Both the position numbers and the translations under genes were made by a program. Below, piece by piece: positions 41,569 to 51,031 of a DNA stretch of 64,000 nucleotides; positions within the stretch are counted from its first letter, which is position 1; every line of letters starts with the position of its first letter. Location: the NCBI GenBank assembly GCA_965214095.1, contig OZ243938.1:3968001-4032000 (forward strand), read 5' to 3'. Under the pieces are notes generated by a model. The model worked only from the letters and a program-made list of their open reading frames with translations. It searched no databases and was not told the origin of the DNA. Source of the stretch: Candidatus Poribacteria bacterium. GTDB taxonomy: Bacteria > Poribacteria > WGA-4E > WGA-3G.

Positions 41569-42207
41569 ATGCAAGAAACCAGAGGGAATATGAATCTGTT
41601 TGCTGCTGAGGAATTAGAAGAAATTGACGATGATGAATTGGTTACAAACTTCCAGAATGGTGATAAGAGCGCGTTTAATACACTTGTCCTAAAATATCAG
41701 AATCGTATTGCAAAACTCATATACAGACACACGAATGATGCGGAAACTACAAAAGATCTCTGTCAAGAAACATTCTTGAAAGCATATAAGTCACTCCCAA
41801 AATTTAAACGTGAATCTGCATTTTATAGTTGGCTATATCGCATAGCAATTAATTGTTGTATTGACCATGCGCGACAGCAAAATAGAAGAAAAACAGTGTC
41901 GTATGACGAATTGCCTGTTGAACCAGAGGAGTTATTGGTTAGCAAGCATCCATCTCCGTCTCATCTGGTTGAGATGGAGGAACTCGGAGATATTATTAAC
42001 AAAGCAGTGAATCAGCTTCCAACGAAACAACAACATGTCTTTAGACTACGTTATGAAAAGAAGCTAAAGATTAAAGAGGTGGCTGTACGCATCAATCGAT
42101 CAGAGGGAACGGTAAAAACTCATTTACATCATGCCCATCAGCGGCTTCGTGAATTGTTACGTCCTTATTTGGAAAATCGTCCGTTTGAATGGGACAGTGA
42201 GATATAA
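41569..42207 (+). CDS. Soluble ECF sigma factor (RpoE-like)
   Basis: AFNTLVLKYQ, DLCQETFLKAY, FYSWLYRIAIN, EVA..INRSEGTVKT.LH.A. Confidence 0.92.
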   Translation: MQETRGNMNLFAAEELEEIDDDELVTNFQNGDKSAFNTLVLKYQNRIAKLIYRHTNDAETTKDLCQETFLKAYKSLPKFKRESAFYSWLYRIAINCCIDHARQQNRRKTVSYDELPVEPEELLVSKHPSPSHLVEMEELGDIINKAVNQLPTKQQHVFRLRYEKKLKIKEVAVRINRSEGTVKTHLHHAHQRLRELLRPYLENRPFEWDSEI

Positions 42208-42249: not shown

Positions 42250-44166
42250 ATGGATTCTGTTATGAAAACGAAGATTTTTTCAATTCTATTGATCTTGTTG
42301 ATTTTTTCAACGTTCATCCTACCACCTGCTATTGGCAAAGACTACACAACGTGGGAGTTACCCGAAGGTGCTACAGCACGTCTCGGTAAGAGCACGATTG
42401 AAGAAATTAAATATTCACCAGATGGTACACTACTCGCTGTCGCGGGTGAAATGGGTATTTGGCTCTATGAGGCACAGAGTGGAAAAGAACTACATCTTCT
42501 TTTAGGTAACACACAATGTCTGAACGGCATATCGTTTAGTCCGGATGGAAAAACCATTACAAGTGTAAGTAGACTCAGCGTGCGTCAGTGGGATGTTGAA
42601 TCAGGTTTGCATTTAGGAGTACTCACAACACATTCTGGCTATAGTATCGCGTATAGTCCTGATGGTAAACTCTTGGCAATTGGGGGTTATGATGGAGGGG
42701 CAAATGATGTCATCTATCTGTTGGATGCCGAATTTGCTGAACGCTTACACGTTTTCAGGAAACATAAAGGAAGAATTACAAGTGTATCATTCAGTCCAGA
42801 CGGTAGCATGCTCGTAAGTGGAGATGAAACTGGTTTCATTCATCTTTGGGATGTGGTCTCTGGTTCACATTTGTGGACATTTAAAAGGAATAAAATCTTC
42901 AGGAGTCATAATTCTGGGATTACCCATATTTCCTTTAGTCCCAATGAAAAGATAATCGCAAGTGCAAGCGAGAATGGTATCATCCGGATATGGAATACTG
43001 AACCCGGTGACCACCTACGTATTCTCAAAGGACATGGAGGTAGAGTAGATAGCATTTCTTTCAGTCCAGATGGAAAAACTATTGTAAGTGGCGGTTGGGA
43101 TCATACTATTCGTTTGTGGGAAGTCGAATCTGGGGAGCACCTAAACACTTTTAAAGGGCATACAAGTCATATTCGAAGTATTTCTTTCAGTCCGGATGGG
43201 AAAACAATCGCGAGCGGGAGTTGGGACCAAACTATCCGTTTGTGGGATGTCAAATCTGGTAGACAACTGATAACTATCACGGGACATACTGGACGTCTTA
43301 GTAATATAACAATAAATCCGGATGGGAAAACAATTGCGGGTGGATATGGAGGTGATGACTGTATTCGCCTGTGGGATATTAAGTCCAATCAACAACTGCA
43401 AGTTCTCAGGGGGCATGAAATTTCTATTGAGAATGTAGCATTCAGTCCAGATGGAAAATTCATCATCAGTGGAAGTCAGGACAAAACTGTTCGTCTCTGG
43501 GATGTTGCTTCTGCTAAACACTTACACACCTTTATCGGACATACGGGTAGAGTGTTCAGTGTAGCCTTCAGTTCGGATGGAAAAACAATCGCAAGTGGGA
43601 GCCATGACAATACTATCCGTTTATGGGATGTTGACTCTAAAACACATTTGTCAACGCTTAGAGGACATTTATCGGATGTTGCTTGTGTCTCATTCAGTCC
43701 GGATGGAAAAACAATCGCAAGTGGGAGCCATGACAATACTATCCGTTTATGGGATGTTGTTACTGGCAAACATCTGCACACTTATAAGGGACATAAAAGG
43801 ACTGTTGAAGGTATTTCATTCAGTCCTGATGGGAAAACATTCGCAAGCGGGAGTTGGGACCAAACCGTCCGCCTATGGGATGTTATGTCAGGAACAAATT
43901 TGCACACATTTAGAGGTCATACCAGTTGGGTTCGCTGTGTCTCATTCAGTCCTGATGGAGAAACAATTGCAAGCGGCGGTTCTGACAGAACTATCCAATT
44001 TTGGGATGTTGCATCTGGTATATCCACGCGTTCCTTCAATGAACATTCATCTATAAAAAGTCTATCATTTACGCCAGATGGCAACACATTAGTTAGTAGC
44101 AGTATCGGCGGCAGTCTTCTTATCTGGAATCTCGCACCTACGAACAGTAATAGTAATTACGATTAA
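42250..44166 (+). CDS. Secreted WD40-repeat protein (probable double beta-propeller)
   Basis: Signal peptide; about 14 GH...SFSPDGK.IASGS.D.TIRLWD repeats; N-terminal YTTWELPEGATARLGK cap. Confidence 0.92.
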   Translation: MDSVMKTKIFSILLILLIFSTFILPPAIGKDYTTWELPEGATARLGKSTIEEIKYSPDGTLLAVAGEMGIWLYEAQSGKELHLLLGNTQCLNGISFSPDGKTITSVSRLSVRQWDVESGLHLGVLTTHSGYSIAYSPDGKLLAIGGYDGGANDVIYLLDAEFAERLHVFRKHKGRITSVSFSPDGSMLVSGDETGFIHLWDVVSGSHLWTFKRNKIFRSHNSGITHISFSPNEKIIASASENGIIRIWNTEPGDHLRILKGHGGRVDSISFSPDGKTIVSGGWDHTIRLWEVESGEHLNTFKGHTSHIRSISFSPDGKTIASGSWDQTIRLWDVKSGRQLITITGHTGRLSNITINPDGKTIAGGYGGDDCIRLWDIKSNQQLQVLRGHEISIENVAFSPDGKFIISGSQDKTVRLWDVASAKHLHTFIGHTGRVFSVAFSSDGKTIASGSHDNTIRLWDVDSKTHLSTLRGHLSDVACVSFSPDGKTIASGSHDNTIRLWDVVTGKHLHTYKGHKRTVEGISFSPDGKTFASGSWDQTVRLWDVMSGTNLHTFRGHTSWVRCVSFSPDGETIASGGSDRTIQFWDVASGISTRSFNEHSSIKSLSFTPDGNTLVSSSIGGSLLIWNLAPTNSNSNYD

Positions 44167-44185: not shown

Positions 44186-44214
44186 TTGACACAAACTAAA
44201 AATTAAGGTATTAT
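44186..44214 (+). promoter_or_regulatory. sigma70 promoter of the leader-hisI-trpE-trpG transcript
   Basis: TTGACA (44186-44191), 17 bp, TATTAT (44209-44214). Confidence 0.75.
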
Positions 44215-44243
44215 AAAACAAAAGAATTGAAAAGGTAAATACA

Positions 44244-44336
44244 ATGGCTTTTGCTATACACTCCTATTTGAATAGAAATGGATATGATTGGCATTGGTGG
44301 CATTCCAATATCAGTGAAGGGGTGTGTGTGCACTAA
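44244..44336 (+). CDS. Putative His/Trp attenuator leader peptide MAFAIHSYLNRNGYDWHWWHSNISEGVCVH (30 aa)
   Basis: AAAGGT SD-like sequence upstream; TGG CAT TGG TGG CAT at 44289-44303; lies between the promoter and a terminator ahead of hisI-trpE-trpG. Confidence 0.8.
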   Translation: MAFAIHSYLNRNGYDWHWWHSNISEGVCVH

Positions 44337-44368
44337 CGATTTTGTTTTATTATTTTAAAGCTATCTGT

Positions 44369-44414
44369 AGACCTTATGCACACAACCTATGTGGCATAAG
44401 GTTTTTGTTTTTTT
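44369..44414 (+). terminator. Attenuator intrinsic terminator
   Basis: ACCTTATGC (44371-44379) pairs with GCATAAGGT (44394-44402), followed by TTTTGTTTTTTT, 18 nt before the hisI ATG. Confidence 0.8.
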
Positions 44415-44432
44415 AATCTCGAAGGAGAACAC

Positions 44433-44813
44433 ATGAATATACTATCTGAACTGAAATATGATAGGGACGGATTAGTCACCGCAGTAATTCAGGATCGCGA
44501 AAATAATGAAGTCCTGATGGTAGGTTATATGAACGCGGAAGCGATCAAACAAACGTTGTCAACGGGTAGCGTATGCTTCTGGAGTCGTTCCCGCCAAAAG
44601 TTGTGGATTAAGGGGGAGACTTCAGGACATACACAGACTGTCGAATCTATCGCGGTCGATTGTGATGGCGATGCCTTGCTGATAAAGGTTGAGCAGAAGG
44701 TAGCAGCATGTCATACTGGGTACCGTTCCTGCTTCTTTCGGGAAGTCTCCCCCGATGGTGAGTCAACAGAAGTCGTAGGTGAAAAGATATTTGATGCGGA
44801 TGCGGTTTATTAG
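44433..44813 (+). CDS. hisI: Phosphoribosyl-AMP cyclohydrolase
   Basis: [37 protein letters not shown]. Confidence 0.97.
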
Positions 44814-44888
44814 AAAATAATTTTGCTTATTTTCGTGTCTTAGCATCAGATAGTTGGTTATTTATACCAAAGATAGATAATGAAGGTA

Positions 44889-44993
44889 TTATAGTAGATT
44901 TTGAAATTACTTGAACACTCTGCATCGGCGGGGTTAGGAAACCTCGTCTACCGCGGAACGATAGTGTCAACTTGTATGCTAAATTGACTATAT
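44889..44993. mobile_element. MITE-like element, family B copy 2, between hisI and trpE
   Basis: Reverse complement of 41153-41257 with scattered mismatches. Confidence 0.8.
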
Positions 44994-45037
44994 TACAATA
45001 TTAGATACAGGCTAAGGATACGAAAAGGAGTTTTGCA

Positions 45038-46540
45038 ATGTATTATCCTACATTGAAGGAATTTAGAGACAAAGCGAAAGAAGGCAACACGATTCCGGTA
45101 TATCGTCCGATTTTGGCAGATATGGAGACACCGGTATCAGCATTCTACAAGTTGATGCCAGACAATTTTGCCTTCTTATTAGAAAGTGTTGAAGGTGGAG
45201 AACAAGTTGCACGCTACTCATTTCTGGGTGGTCAACCGTCAATACTGTTCCATACGAAGGGACATGAGGTGACCATTGAGTATTTGACGAAGGGTGAGAA
45301 GGTGTGCAAGGAATACGATGACCCATTGAAAGCACTTGAAGAGTTGATGCACAATTATCAACCTGTCAAAGTTGATGGACTACCAGAATTCCACGGCGGT
45401 GCTGTTGGGTATATGACTTATGATATGGTGCGGTTCGTGGAAGAATTGCCAGATGATAATGAAGATGAACTACAACTACCCGACTCTTTTTTCATGATTG
45501 CAGAAACATTGCTGATCTTTGATCATGTTAATCATCAGATCAAAGTTGTTGCAAACGCGCATATTGATGGAGATGTTGACGCAGCTTATGCCGATGCAAT
45601 TGGGAAAATAGAGGCATTGGTTGAAAAACTGACAACTGTTTCTGACATATCTGCAGTTGGAAACAGAGAACAGAATACAGAACACCATCCTGATCCGATA
45701 CCTGATCCACAATCTAATTTCACGAAGCCTGACTATGAAGATGTGGTAAGACGCGCCAAAGAATACATCGCTGCGGGGGATATTATTCAAGTCGTGCCTT
45801 CACAGCGGTTCAGTCGTCCTGTATCTGTTGACTCGTTTGATATTTATCGCGCATTGCGAGTGGTGAATCCGTCACCTTATATGTATTATCTTAAGTGTAA
45901 TGGATTTGACATTGTAGGGGCTTCTCCAGAGATGATGGTACGGGTAGAGGATGGTATTGTCCAAACCATGCCAATTGCTGGAACACGTCCGCGTGGGAAG
46001 AATACTGAAGAGGACCAAGCATTAGCGGAGGAACTTCTTTCCGATCCTAAGGAACGGGCAGAACATGTCATGCTTGTGGATTTAGGGAGAAACGACCTTG
46101 GACGTGTATGTGAATACCATTCTGTCAAGGTTACCGATTTGATGATAATTGAAAGGTTTTCCCACGTGATGCACATTGTCTCACATGTTGTTGGAAGGTT
46201 ACGTGAAAATCTATCGGCTTACGATGTTATTCGCGCTTGTCTCCCCGCAGGCACACTCTCTGGTGCACCAAAAATACGTGCAATGGAGATCATTGACGAA
46301 CTGGAATCTACGCGTCGTGGTCCCTATGGTGGTGCAGTAGGCTATTTCAGTTTCTCTGGTAGTGCAGACACAGCGATTACTATACGAACTGCAGTCATCA
46401 AAGATGGGACTGCTTATGTGCAAGCAGGTGGCGGTGTCGTTGCTGATTCAATACCTGAAAATGAATACTATGAAACCGTTAGTAAAGCATGGGCAATGCT
46501 TACTGCTATTGAAATGGCACAACAAGGTCTAATATTATAG
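45038..46540 (+). CDS. trpE: Anthranilate synthase component I
   Basis: LLESVEGG (Trp feedback site), [37 protein letters not shown]. Confidence 0.95.
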
Positions 46541-46550
46541 GAGAGAAAAG

Positions 46551-47114
46551 ATGGTATTGATGATTGACAATTACGACTCTTTTACCTACAATCTTGTACA
46601 ATACCTCGGTGAACTCGGTGCGGATTTAGAGGTACATCGCAGTCGGAAAATAGGCATAGATGAATTAGACGTATTGGAACCTGAACGGGTTGTGATTTCA
46701 CCCGGACCTTGCACACCACGAGAAGCGGGAATTTCAAACGATGTGATAAAACACTATGCTGGGAAGGTGCCGATATTAGGAGTGTGTCTTGGACATCAGT
46801 GTATCGGTGATGTGTTTGGTGGTGAAGTGGTGCGTGCTGATAGGTTGATGCATGGTAAGACCTCAATGATAATGCATAATGATAGAGAGCTATTTGAGGG
46901 ATTGGATAATCCGTTTGAAGCGACACGTTACCACTCGTTGATTGTTAAGAAAGACACGTTACCGGATTGTTTGGAAATCACTGCATGGACGGATGCGGAT
47001 GAAATTATGGGGATTCGCCATAAAACTTTGCCGATTTGGGGTGTTCAGTTTCATCCTGAATCAATTCTGACAACAGCCGGAAAGAGTCTATTAGGGAACT
47101 TTTTGGCACTATAA
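46551..47114 (+). CDS. trpG: Anthranilate/aminodeoxychorismate synthase component II
   Basis: [33 protein letters not shown]. Confidence 0.93.
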
Positions 47115-47140: not shown

Positions 47141-47911
47141 ATGACAAATTCAAAAGAAAACAAAGTGCCTACACCTGTTCTCGTTTCTTGGTCTTCAGGA
47201 AAAGATTCGGCTTGGGCATTACATACATTACGTCAACAACCTGAAAAATACGATGTGCGTGGTATCTTTACCACTGTTACAAAGACCTTTGACCGTGTTT
47301 CTATCCATTCTACACCTGCGTGGGTTTTGAAACAACAGGCTGAGAAACTCGATGTGCCGTTGTATGAGATACCGATTCCGTATCCTTGTTCAAATGAGAT
47401 ATATGAAGCAGCGATGCGTAAGTTTCTTGCTGAAGTAGAAGCGTTACCTAAGAATTTGACAGCATCTCATTTTGCATTCGGTGATCTTTTTCTTGAAGAT
47501 ATCCGCGCGTATCGTGAGGAAAAACTGCATGGAACAGGTTTCACACCGATATTTCCGGTTTGGGGTGAAGATACGACAATTCTTGCCAATAAGATGATTG
47601 CGTCTGGTTTGCGTGCGATTGTCACTGCTCTCAATCCAACCAAAGTACCTGCTGATTTTGCAGGACGATGGTTTGATGCGGAACTCCTTGCGGAATTACC
47701 TGATGAAGTGGATCCACTCGGTGAGAATGGGGAGTTTCATACTTGTGTTGTTGATGGTCCTATGTTCAGTTCTCCAGTTGCTGCGAAACCCGGTAAAATC
47801 GTGGAGAGGGATATTGTTTCTGCCTCCAAAGACGACGATGACAAAATTCACAGTAGCAACACCTCTCCTCCTACTTATGTGTATGCTGACGTTGTACCTC
47901 TGGATGTTTAG
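47141..47911 (+). CDS. PP-loop ATP-binding protein, Dph6/diphthamide-synthase-like family
   Basis: SWSSGKDS, FGDLFLEDIRAYRE, DPLGENGEFHT.V.DGPMF. Confidence 0.88.
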   Translation: MTNSKENKVPTPVLVSWSSGKDSAWALHTLRQQPEKYDVRGIFTTVTKTFDRVSIHSTPAWVLKQQAEKLDVPLYEIPIPYPCSNEIYEAAMRKFLAEVEALPKNLTASHFAFGDLFLEDIRAYREEKLHGTGFTPIFPVWGEDTTILANKMIASGLRAIVTALNPTKVPADFAGRWFDAELLAELPDEVDPLGENGEFHTCVVDGPMFSSPVAAKPGKIVERDIVSASKDDDDKIHSSNTSPPTYVYADVVPLDV

Positions 47912-48058: not shown

Positions 48059-51031
48059 ATGAAAAACAACGACACACAATTAATCCACCGCGCTCTTGAT
48101 GGCGATGATTTTGCCTATGCGGAACTTGTAGAGAAATATCAAAAACAGGTTCACGCGCTTGTGTGGCGGAAAATCGGAGATTTTCATATTGCCGAAGAGA
48201 TTACACAGGATACATTTCTGAAGGCATATCAGAAACTCGGAACACTCAAGAATCCGCATCGTTTTGCAAGTTGGCTCTATGTGATTGCAGCGAACCGATG
48301 CAGCACGTGGTTGCGTAAAAAGAATTCACGTAAGCAACTGTTGGAAGATAAGGATATCACGCAACCTGAAGAAGCGACTTATTCTGAGTATGTGCTTGAG
48401 GAGAACGAACGGATCACCATAGAGACACAACGCGATGTCGTCCAAAAACTCCTTGCAAAGCTTGGGGAAAGTGAACGAACTGTTATGACATTGCATTACT
48501 TCGGAGAGATGTCGTGTGCGGAGATCGGAGCATTTATGGGTGTATCAGCAAATACGGTTAAGAGCCGTCTCCGTCGCGCACAGCAGCGACTACAAAAGGA
48601 GGAAACAATGATAAGAGAGGCTTTAGACAACTTCCAAATATCACCAAATCTGACAGAAAACATTATACGCGAGATTTCACATACAAAACCCACCACGCCG
48701 ACTGGTGGTAAACCTATTGTTCCGTGGGCAATGGCTGTTTCCACTTTAGCAGTGGTGTTGCTGATGATCGGTTTTGGAAACCATCTATCTTTTGGGATTT
48801 TTCAAAAACCGTATAGTCTCGATTCGCCTGCAGAGATGAAGGTTGAGATCGTTGAAGCGTTGATAGTCGCGGACTTGGAGTCCAAACCTGATGTGCAAAC
48901 ACAGAGCACGGGGGCAAACGTTTTTGGTGCGCGAAATAACCTTGAACAGCAACCTAACGATACCACTGTGCTTACTACAGAGACACAAGCAGAGAAAATA
49001 GTTGAAGATTGGACACCTGTGGAAAATTATACACAATGGGAACTGCCAAAAGCTGCGAAAGCACGTTTAGGAAAGGGTGGAATTAGATCAATGCAATTTT
49101 CACCAGATGGTTCTCTACTTGCTCTAGGCAGTAATATCGGTGTGTGGCTATACGATGTCAAAACTGGTCAGGAATTATCCATGTATCCAGGTAATTGTCA
49201 ATCCATTGCCTTTTCACCTGATGGACTTTCCCTTGCAAGTAGTGGTAGAAGTAGTGAAAATGAACTTGTTATTTGGGATGTTTCTACCAGGCCAAAACAA
49301 ATACTGACAGAACCACAACCTGCTGCAGCAGTGTTGCGGTTTGATGATAATAAAACACTCGTCAGCTTGAATAAATCAAGAGACAATATTAACAGATTGG
49401 ACATAAATACTGGCAGAAGTTCCGTAACCCCTATTGGTATTCCTCCTAGTTCCTTTTTATCTGAACCTTATGCACTTTCACATGACAAATTAGCAGTAGG
49501 TAATCAGGATGGAACGATTGATCTGTGGGAAACAACCAGTGGAGAGAGTTATGCCACCTATGGTGAATCAGGTTATAGTAAACATGTTTTCACACTTGCA
49601 TTTTCTCCCGATGGCACGCGACTTGCTAGTGGTGGAGAAGATACATTGGTTCGATTATGGAATATTTTAGGTGATGATGAACCGATTATCCTTCAAAAAC
49701 ATACAGAATGGGTAAACGTTTTAGCATTCTCTCCAGATGGAAAAAAACTTGCCAGCGGGAGTACTGATAGGACAGTTCAATTGTGGGATACTTCAACTGG
49801 TGAACGACTCATGACTTTCACAGGTCACATTAACGGAATCACAGCACTAACATTTGCTCCAAATGGAACAACACTTGCATCAGCAAGTGCGGATGGGACT
49901 GTCAGGTTTTGGAATACAGATAATGGAACTCTTCTACCAACCACTATCACGGGGCATCTGGAATGGGTGCCAACGGTGTCTTTTCTTGGAGATAGCACAA
50001 CACTTGCAAGTGTTGCTTTCAATGGGGTAATAAATTTATGGGATTTGGATACTTCGCTAACAACTATCCAACACATCTCAGGATATCGAGACGGATTGGC
50101 TGCAGTAGCGTTTTCCTCTGATGGAACAAAACTTGCAAACATTGGCATAGAAGGTAAGGCAATCTATGTAACTGGCAATGGTTTTTCAAATGCCAGTAGT
50201 ATACCTGATGATATTATCCGTTTAAAGGATGTAAGAACAGGAAATGAGTTGCAGAATTTGAAAGGTGCGAGAAATTCTGATGCTGTTGTCTTTTCACCTG
50301 ATGGAAACACGGTAGCTTTTGGTGGACACGGGAACATTCGCTTGTGGAATACTGAGACAGATGAGATCACTGAAATTCCTCTCAATAATTACATTGATAA
50401 CAAGGGTGACTCTCACCATGCGAGAGTAACAACTTTGGTATTCTCACCTGATGGAAATGAAATTGTCTGTGGTACAATGGGAGGAAAAGTACATAAGTGG
50501 AATGTCGATACTGGAGAGAGACATATTCGAGATCCGCTCTTTGACACACAAGTACCACTTGCGAAGGAAACACGACGTTTAGTTCGTGCTAAGATAAATC
50601 GTACATCTGATGATAGCGAGCATGATACGAAAAATGTAGAACTGCTTGAAGATGTTGGCATTTCATATAACGAGGCTATATCGACATTAGCATTTTCACC
50701 AGATGGAGGATTGCTTGCTATCGGTAGTACTAGACGCATCCATTTATTGGGCATTGAGAAACAGATCAGTTTCAGGGAACTACTCCGTTCAGCGGAAGTG
50801 TTACGGTTTACACAGGATAACAACATGCTTTTATGTGGACTCATAGATGGTAGAATTGAAGTATGGGAATTGTCTACTGTGGGTATACTGGCAACGCTTG
50901 AGGGACATACTGGGTCTGTGCAGTCTCTGGTATTCTCATCTGATGGAAAAACCCTTGTCAGTACAGGGAAAGATGGTACAATCCTTGTGTGGGATTGGGA
51001 TGAAATGCTTAAAGTATCGGCAGAAGAATAA
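48059..51031 (+). CDS. ECF sigma factor-TM-WD40 fusion
   Basis: Sigma2/sigma4 motifs in the first ~185 aa; TM AVSTLAVVLLMIGFG; WD40 repeats. Confidence 0.9.
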   Translation: MKNNDTQLIHRALDGDDFAYAELVEKYQKQVHALVWRKIGDFHIAEEITQDTFLKAYQKLGTLKNPHRFASWLYVIAANRCSTWLRKKNSRKQLLEDKDITQPEEATYSEYVLEENERITIETQRDVVQKLLAKLGESERTVMTLHYFGEMSCAEIGAFMGVSANTVKSRLRRAQQRLQKEETMIREALDNFQISPNLTENIIREISHTKPTTPTGGKPIVPWAMAVSTLAVVLLMIGFGNHLSFGIFQKPYSLDSPAEMKVEIVEALIVADLESKPDVQTQSTGANVFGARNNLEQQPNDTTVLTTETQAEKIVEDWTPVENYTQWELPKAAKARLGKGGIRSMQFSPDGSLLALGSNIGVWLYDVKTGQELSMYPGNCQSIAFSPDGLSLASSGRSSENELVIWDVSTRPKQILTEPQPAAAVLRFDDNKTLVSLNKSRDNINRLDINTGRSSVTPIGIPPSSFLSEPYALSHDKLAVGNQDGTIDLWETTSGESYATYGESGYSKHVFTLAFSPDGTRLASGGEDTLVRLWNILGDDEPIILQKHTEWVNVLAFSPDGKKLASGSTDRTVQLWDTSTGERLMTFTGHINGITALTFAPNGTTLASASADGTVRFWNTDNGTLLPTTITGHLEWVPTVSFLGDSTTLASVAFNGVINLWDLDTSLTTIQHISGYRDGLAAVAFSSDGTKLANIGIEGKAIYVTGNGFSNASSIPDDIIRLKDVRTGNELQNLKGARNSDAVVFSPDGNTVAFGGHGNIRLWNTETDEITEIPLNNYIDNKGDSHHARVTTLVFSPDGNEIVCGTMGGKVHKWNVDTGERHIRDPLFDTQVPLAKETRRLVRAKINRTSDDSEHDTKNVELLEDVGISYNEAISTLAFSPDGGLLAIGSTRRIHLLGIEKQISFRELLRSAEVLRFTQDNNMLLCGLIDGRIEVWELSTVGILATLEGHTGSVQSLVFSSDGKTLVSTGKDGTILVWDWDEMLKVSAEE

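Follow-up and report, generated by a model that had tools for sequence, protein, structure and literature searches.

A conserved leader-peptide attenuator with interleaved tryptophan and histidine codons precedes a hisI-trpE-trpG operon in Candidatus Poribacteria

Poribacteria are an uncultured phylum of sponge symbionts. The 64,000-nucleotide stretch of Candidatus Poribacteria bacterium DNA analysed here (the window) carries on its forward strand a hisI-trpE-trpG operon, and this operon is preceded by a ribosome-mediated transcription attenuator that is real and conserved. The short leader open reading frame (ORF) of this attenuator interleaves Trp codons with His codons, and sequence comparisons suggest that the attenuator very likely responds to tryptophan and that it probably responds to histidine as well. 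We consider it reasonably likely that it is a two-input (Trp + His) leader-peptide attenuator that serves genes of both pathways. The mechanism is the textbook one, and the mixture of control codons for two pathways is the new part.

The promoter, the 30-codon Trp/His ORF, the 1-2-3-4 RNA segments, the terminator and the three genes were all found where a preliminary description of this DNA had placed them (Table 1). The Trp codons of the leader ORF are numbers 16, 18 and 19, and its His codons are numbers 6, 17, 20 and 30. The minimum free energy (MFE) fold of the free 200-nt RNA 44221–44420 contains helix 1:2 plus the terminator (−53.9 kcal/mol), with a z-score of −3.56 and none of 200 shuffled sequences folding as well. 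Folds in which the ribosome masks part of the RNA agree with the classical attenuator layout that the preliminary description had proposed: when the ribosomal A-site lies on any of codons 16–20 and the RNA extends to 44391, the MFE structure is the 2:3 antiterminator (−20.4 kcal/mol), and a ribosome lying on the stop codon masks segment 2 and leaves only the terminator able to form (−18.8 kcal/mol). A stall at His codon 6 is predicted to cover segment 1 and to free segment 2 as well.

From this anatomy we infer the following course of events. Transcription would start at about 44221, and a ribosome would translate the 30-codon leader. When charged tRNA-Trp and tRNA-His are both ample the ribosome would reach the stop codon and cover segment 2, so that segments 3 and 4 would pair and RNA polymerase would terminate at the T-tract 5′ of hisI. 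When either tRNA is scarce the ribosome would stall on codons 16–20 and leave segment 2 free and separated from segment 1; segment 2 would then pair with segment 3 once that segment is made, no terminator would form, and transcription would read through into hisI-trpE-trpG. If the leader is not translated at all, helices 1:2 and 3:4 would both form and transcription would terminate. The His codons would serve in this scheme as an OR input.

Table 1. Coordinates of the attenuator, its operon and related features (window positions unless a locus name is given).
Feature	Position	Strand	Details
sigma-70-type promoter	44186..44214	+	−35 = 44186–44191, −10 = 44209–44214, 17-nt spacer; 11/12 consensus positions
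weak Shine-Dalgarno-like purine tract	44232..44235	+	~8 nt 5′ of leader start codon; putative, from sequence
leader-peptide ORF	44244..44336	+	30 codons + stop (stop 44334–44336)
control codons 16–20, Trp-His-Trp-Trp-His	44289..44303	+	sequence reading
segment 1	44256..44265	+	partner of segment 2 without leader translation; MFE folds
segment 2 (antiterminator 5′ strand)	44319..44332	+	3′ end 1 nt short of leader stop codon
segment 3	44377..44387	+	common to antiterminator and terminator 5′ arm + loop
intrinsic terminator	44371..44414	+	hairpin 44371–44402 (−18.0 kcal/mol), T-tract 44402–44414
hisI, phosphoribosyl-AMP cyclohydrolase, monofunctional	44433..44813	+	NCBIfam NF000768, 175.5 bits, cut-off 126
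trpE, anthranilate synthase component I	45038..46540	+	NCBIfam TIGR00564, 590.7, cut-off 517.7
trpG, anthranilate synthase glutamine amidotransferase component	46551..47114	+	NCBIfam TIGR00566, 274.6, above cut-off
repeat element, ~110 nt, in hisI-trpE spacer	44890..45000	.	~150 copies in genome
His-only leader ORF, 14 codons	L168:335-379	-	outside window, same genome; consensus-like promoter, T-run downstream

The phylum is sampled by 176 species genomes in the genome collection, and we compared 80 hisI loci, 50 of them from the window's order and 30 from further away. A core encoding Trp-His-Trp-Trp stands 5′ of hisI at 44 of the 50 loci of the order; the six that lack it are L033 (where an insertion interrupts the leader ORF), L042 (at a contig end), L039, L045, L049 and L050. 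Short ORFs in which His and Trp codons are interleaved, each followed by a terminator, are present in other orders of the class too. A strict automatic filter called a leader at 59 of the 80 loci and a looser one at 60, and the strict figure is a lower bound, since that filter missed leaders that were seen in six further genus-level groups. In genus g9 three loci show no leader, and in genus g20 one. The g9 loci (L065–L067) keep hisI-trpE and show no visible leader or terminator 5′ of hisI, and L067 has an array of GC-rich repeats where the leader would be.

Among the 59 strict-filter leaders at least one His codon lies within two residues of a Trp codon in 57 (all except L039 and L080), and at least two do so in 44. 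His and Trp make up 11.6% and 9.8% of leader residues, compared with 2.24% and 1.41% in the long ORFs of the genome, and outside the Trp/His cluster the leader peptides cannot be aligned between genera. The ORF is 30–36 codons long among 44 relatives, its frame and the position of its stop relative to segment 2 are conserved, and six of the seven gap blocks inside it in the alignment of these 44 sequences are divisible by three; the seventh falls between the genus and the other sequences, at a place of arbitrary alignment. A competing frame, which opens at ATG 44278 and lacks the Trp and His codons, had been named as possible in the preliminary description; it is not conserved, such an ORF being present in only 2 of the 44 rows. 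That dozens of related genomes share the ORF, its Trp/His cluster and the alternative pairings goes beyond chance. These relatives are non-independent samples; the weight of our argument lies on retention in nine family-level groups and not on the raw counts.

The terminator shows compensatory stem changes of the kind that the preliminary description had anticipated. In the 44-sequence alignment 92.3% of the cells of the terminator helix are paired (35–52% in slid controls), two pairs are G-C in place of U-A, each in 14 sequences, a third pair is also changed on both sides, and the covariation score is reached by none of 500 shuffles. Helix 1:2, taken in one fixed register, is paired in only 75.4% of cells.

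The operon is conserved along with its leader. hisI is followed by trpE on the same strand at all 50 loci of the order and at 27 of the 30 further loci (77 of 80 in total), and the three exceptions are L059, where the contig ends, and L086 and L087, which are distant hisI genes of other classes. The linkage is tight among relatives outside the window's genus, where the hisI-trpE gap is 23–84 nt; within the genus it is 79–558 nt. A scan of the window's spacer flagged no promoter-like or terminator-like site, and one relative's contig lacks 125 nt there. Contigs from RNA libraries of relatives cover 44286–44545, from the leader into hisI (X22 record 13), and 44504–44880 plus 45006–45564, from hisI into trpE (X18 record 1); the X23 contigs gave nothing. 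Of 23 sequencing runs listed, four contain the whole stretch and may be its source, and the two RNA runs contain 0.08 of its words. The two spanning contigs are at most a weak hint of hisI-trpE co-transcription, because they may derive from DNA and show neither ends nor strand. At five loci (L009, L012, L013, L017 and L019) 151–312 nt separate the attenuator from hisI, compared with ~25 nt elsewhere, and the extra DNA of L009 visibly contains the same kind of repeat as the hisI-trpE spacer.

Several results weigh against the two-input attenuator, some of them through RNA structure and operon layout and others through the His codons themselves. The antiterminator columns of the alignment are 87.3% paired, and a register shifted by 2 gives 86.7%, because a GU repeat allows the shifted register to pair as well. 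Column covariation of the antiterminator is thus ambiguous, and each sequence was therefore also scored singly, with the 3′-terminal 30 nt of the leader ORF set against the terminator 5′ arm plus loop. The 2:3 duplex so obtained averages −16.5 kcal/mol, compared with −9.7 kcal/mol for a shuffled partner (n = 60), and lies at about −15 to −24 kcal/mol in 15 of 16 representative loci, L050 (−7.8 kcal/mol) being the exception; on these models the alternative pairing put forward in the preliminary description is predicted in every clade. Preference for the cognate partner has a small margin, both for 1:2 (mean −16.6 kcal/mol, with non-cognate partners −14.0 kcal/mol; the cognate duplex is the better one in 46 of 60) and for 2:3 (−16.5 and −14.5 kcal/mol; 45 of 60); for 3:4 the cognate partner is better than those from other clades in 60 of 60. 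In the full-length RNA stability favours the terminator conformer (−26.9 kcal/mol) over the antiterminator (−20.4 kcal/mol), so once the 3′ arm exists read-through needs kinetic trapping, with the antiterminator forming first, and this requirement is the same as that of classical attenuators. The hisI-trpE gap of the window genome is 224 nt, part of which is the repeat element.

The other adverse results are those on which a plain Trp attenuator draws, that is, one in which only the Trp codons count, His codons are present by an accident of history or structure (as pieces of a local hairpin, for example) and hisI rides along. We consider this explanation unlikely, but it is the rival with the most substance. 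Leaders have few His codons, three to six each with at most three consecutive, and according to passages of PMC1183508, a theoretical treatment that models mixed control regions too, many regulatory codons give sensitivity, which favours a larger number for a sensitive response to histidine. The genome's own His leader (below) nevertheless has just four. The Trp-His-Trp-Trp-His run of the preliminary description stands in its first four codons and fails in its fifth: at codon 20, immediately after the Trp pair, only 8 of the 30 loci of the genus have His, and 22 have Arg (20) or Cys (2). The His at codon 30 is variable too, L073, L060 and L080 have another residue in place of the internal His between Trp codons, and the L039 leader has one Trp codon and no His codon. 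The Trp and His codons also sit in a small local hairpin of the MFE fold, but the partner strand of this hairpin, as judged by eye, varies between clades.

Retention of His beside Trp across the nine family-level groups, while the rest of the peptide diverges, argues against an accident. His is conserved at the codon that separates the Trp codons and at one or two more a short way 5′ of them, and within the cluster His codons have changed synonymously (L034, L036, L026 and L028). The gene content of the genome points in the same direction. hisI has a single match in the window genome, so control by Trp alone would tie His synthesis to the Trp supply, shutting it down when Trp is sufficient and starving the cell of His.

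A natural experiment is provided by five loci that have trpE without hisI upstream of it, a small sample that tempers what follows. In L199 and in L202, which belongs to another class, the leader has four Trp codons and no His codon, and such Trp-only leaders where hisI is missing are not what an accidental origin of the His codons would suggest. L200 and L201 retain a single His codon in leaders that appear partly degenerate, and at L203 there is no leader; these three loci count on the adverse side. In L199–L201 (genus g4) the homologous attenuator stands directly 5′ of trpE, and the only hisI is a distant one elsewhere (45–47% identity).

Leader codon content may track the gene content of the operon. 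We can picture that in the ancestor of one poribacterial class hisI was inserted between a trp attenuator and trpEG, that His codons then entered the Trp cluster to give a two-input OR gate coupling two pathways that consume phosphoribosyl pyrophosphate, and that the His codons decayed where hisI left again. We hold the chances of this history to be evenly balanced. If it is right, the operon would be a case of leader-peptide re-programming when operon content changes, with a phylogenetic contrast in the Trp-only leaders of relatives that have no hisI upstream of trpE and an internal contrast in a His-only leader at hisG in the same genome.

A factor-dependent switch, in which a T-box, a TRAP-like protein or another RNA-binding factor acts on the same terminator and antiterminator and the ORF is irrelevant, seems to us very improbable. 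Alternation between terminator and antiterminator does not by itself need a ribosome, but conservation of the length, frame and stop position of the ORF relative to segment 2, together with its in-frame insertions and deletions, speaks for translation. Between 43800 and 47400, at E values up to 10, Rfam has no family at the leader and only two chance-level matches elsewhere; the Trp_leader (RF00513), His_leader (RF00514) and T-box models have no match in that interval, and no array of spaced triplet repeats is visible by eye in the leader. Least credible of all is that there is no regulation here and that the hairpin merely terminates the upstream WD40-repeat gene, which ends at 44166, beside an ORF that arose by chance, since the hairpin is separated from that gene by a promoter, the upstream genes differ among relatives while the leader-terminator-hisI unit stays together, and the conservation of leader and structure speaks against chance.

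Two of the features in Table 1 need a comment. The promoter match is weak on its own, because promoter-like sites are frequent in this region (13 observed, 10.2 ± 3.1 in shuffled sequence); relatives have a −35 hexamer at the equivalent position, as judged by eye. The attenuator hairpin is not among the sites listed by a consensus terminator scan; its bulge and its long loop are the probable cause. Among the neighbours, a gene for a Dph6-like/PAB0415-family putative ATP pyrophosphatase (47141–47911) follows trpG by 26 nt on the same strand. Large WD40-repeat proteins are encoded near the operon at 42250–44166 and 48059–51031, as read by eye from the translations; the second of these appears by eye to have an N-terminal region like sigma-70/extracytoplasmic-function (ECF) sigma factors, and an ORF for an ECF-type sigma factor flanks the operon at 41569–42207 (also by eye).

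The His-only leader contains four His codons, three of them consecutive, and no Trp codon, and it lies 5′ of an operon whose genes are a hisS-like one (probable hisZ), hisG and hisS. The hisG leader region shows DNA-level conservation in 36 of 36 genus genomes, and 28 of 30 genus loci were seen to have the His-only leader. BLASTN with this leader found nothing in 24 genomes outside the genus, which marks the limit of DNA similarity and not absence. A core similar to the hisI-trpE spacer repeat also occurs 5′ of the hisG leader. Of the other trp and his genes that were located (trpDC, trpB, trpF, hisD and two His_biosynth-family genes), which lie scattered, none shows a leader. A genome-wide scan for short ORFs with a Trp/His cluster followed by a hairpin and T-run gave 19 candidates, among them the hisI leader; one with five His codons at C1:3643165 was dropped for want of a plausible same-strand gene downstream.

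In the full-text literature, a scope that leaves out subscription journals and in which an older account could have been missed, we found no description of a mixed His/Trp leader or of a hisI-trpE attenuator, and no report of attenuation in Poribacteria; the one paper that matched phrases on His and Trp codons compares separate trp and his leaders. In passages of a comparative study of attenuation (PMC1262725) no his elements are given for Actinobacteria. The present sequences indicate that ribosome-mediated attenuation probably operates in Poribacteria.

Comparison with known systems places the two-input reading among several partial precedents. Enterobacterial trpL is a short ORF with clustered Trp codons in a four-segment RNA that controls anthranilate synthase genes. 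The poribacterial element is like trpL (RF00513) in its Trp-codon leader ORF, in its mutually exclusive antiterminator and terminator and in the anthranilate synthase genes it would control; it differs in its longer leader (30 codons), in the His codons interleaved with Trp, in having no Rfam match, and in an operon that begins with hisI and holds only trpE and trpG, with trpDC, trpB and trpF elsewhere and without leaders. It resembles hisL (RF00514) in that leader His codons would control a histidine biosynthesis gene, but it has neither a long His run nor an Rfam match, and the closer analogue of hisL in this genome is the separate His-only leader 5′ of hisG.

Coupling of the two pathways has precedents of another kind. 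Histidine and tryptophan synthesis are cross-linked in Bacillus subtilis through what has been called metabolic interlock. Passages of PMC2395257 mention PriA of actinobacteria, an isomerase with both HisA and TrpF functions. Both act via enzymes or other regulators and not through one leader peptide, and in the window genome, unlike the PriA case, trpF is a gene of its own and there are two His_biosynth-family genes. Multivalent attenuators are the nearest formal parallel: thrL has Thr and Ile codons and ilvL/ivbL have Leu, Val and Ile codons, and in these leaders shortage of any one of the amino acids relieves termination. The hisI leader would likewise combine regulatory codons for several amino acids in one peptide, but whereas thrL and ilvL/ivbL each serve one branched pathway family, its codon mix mirrors a mixed operon with genes of two unrelated pathways.

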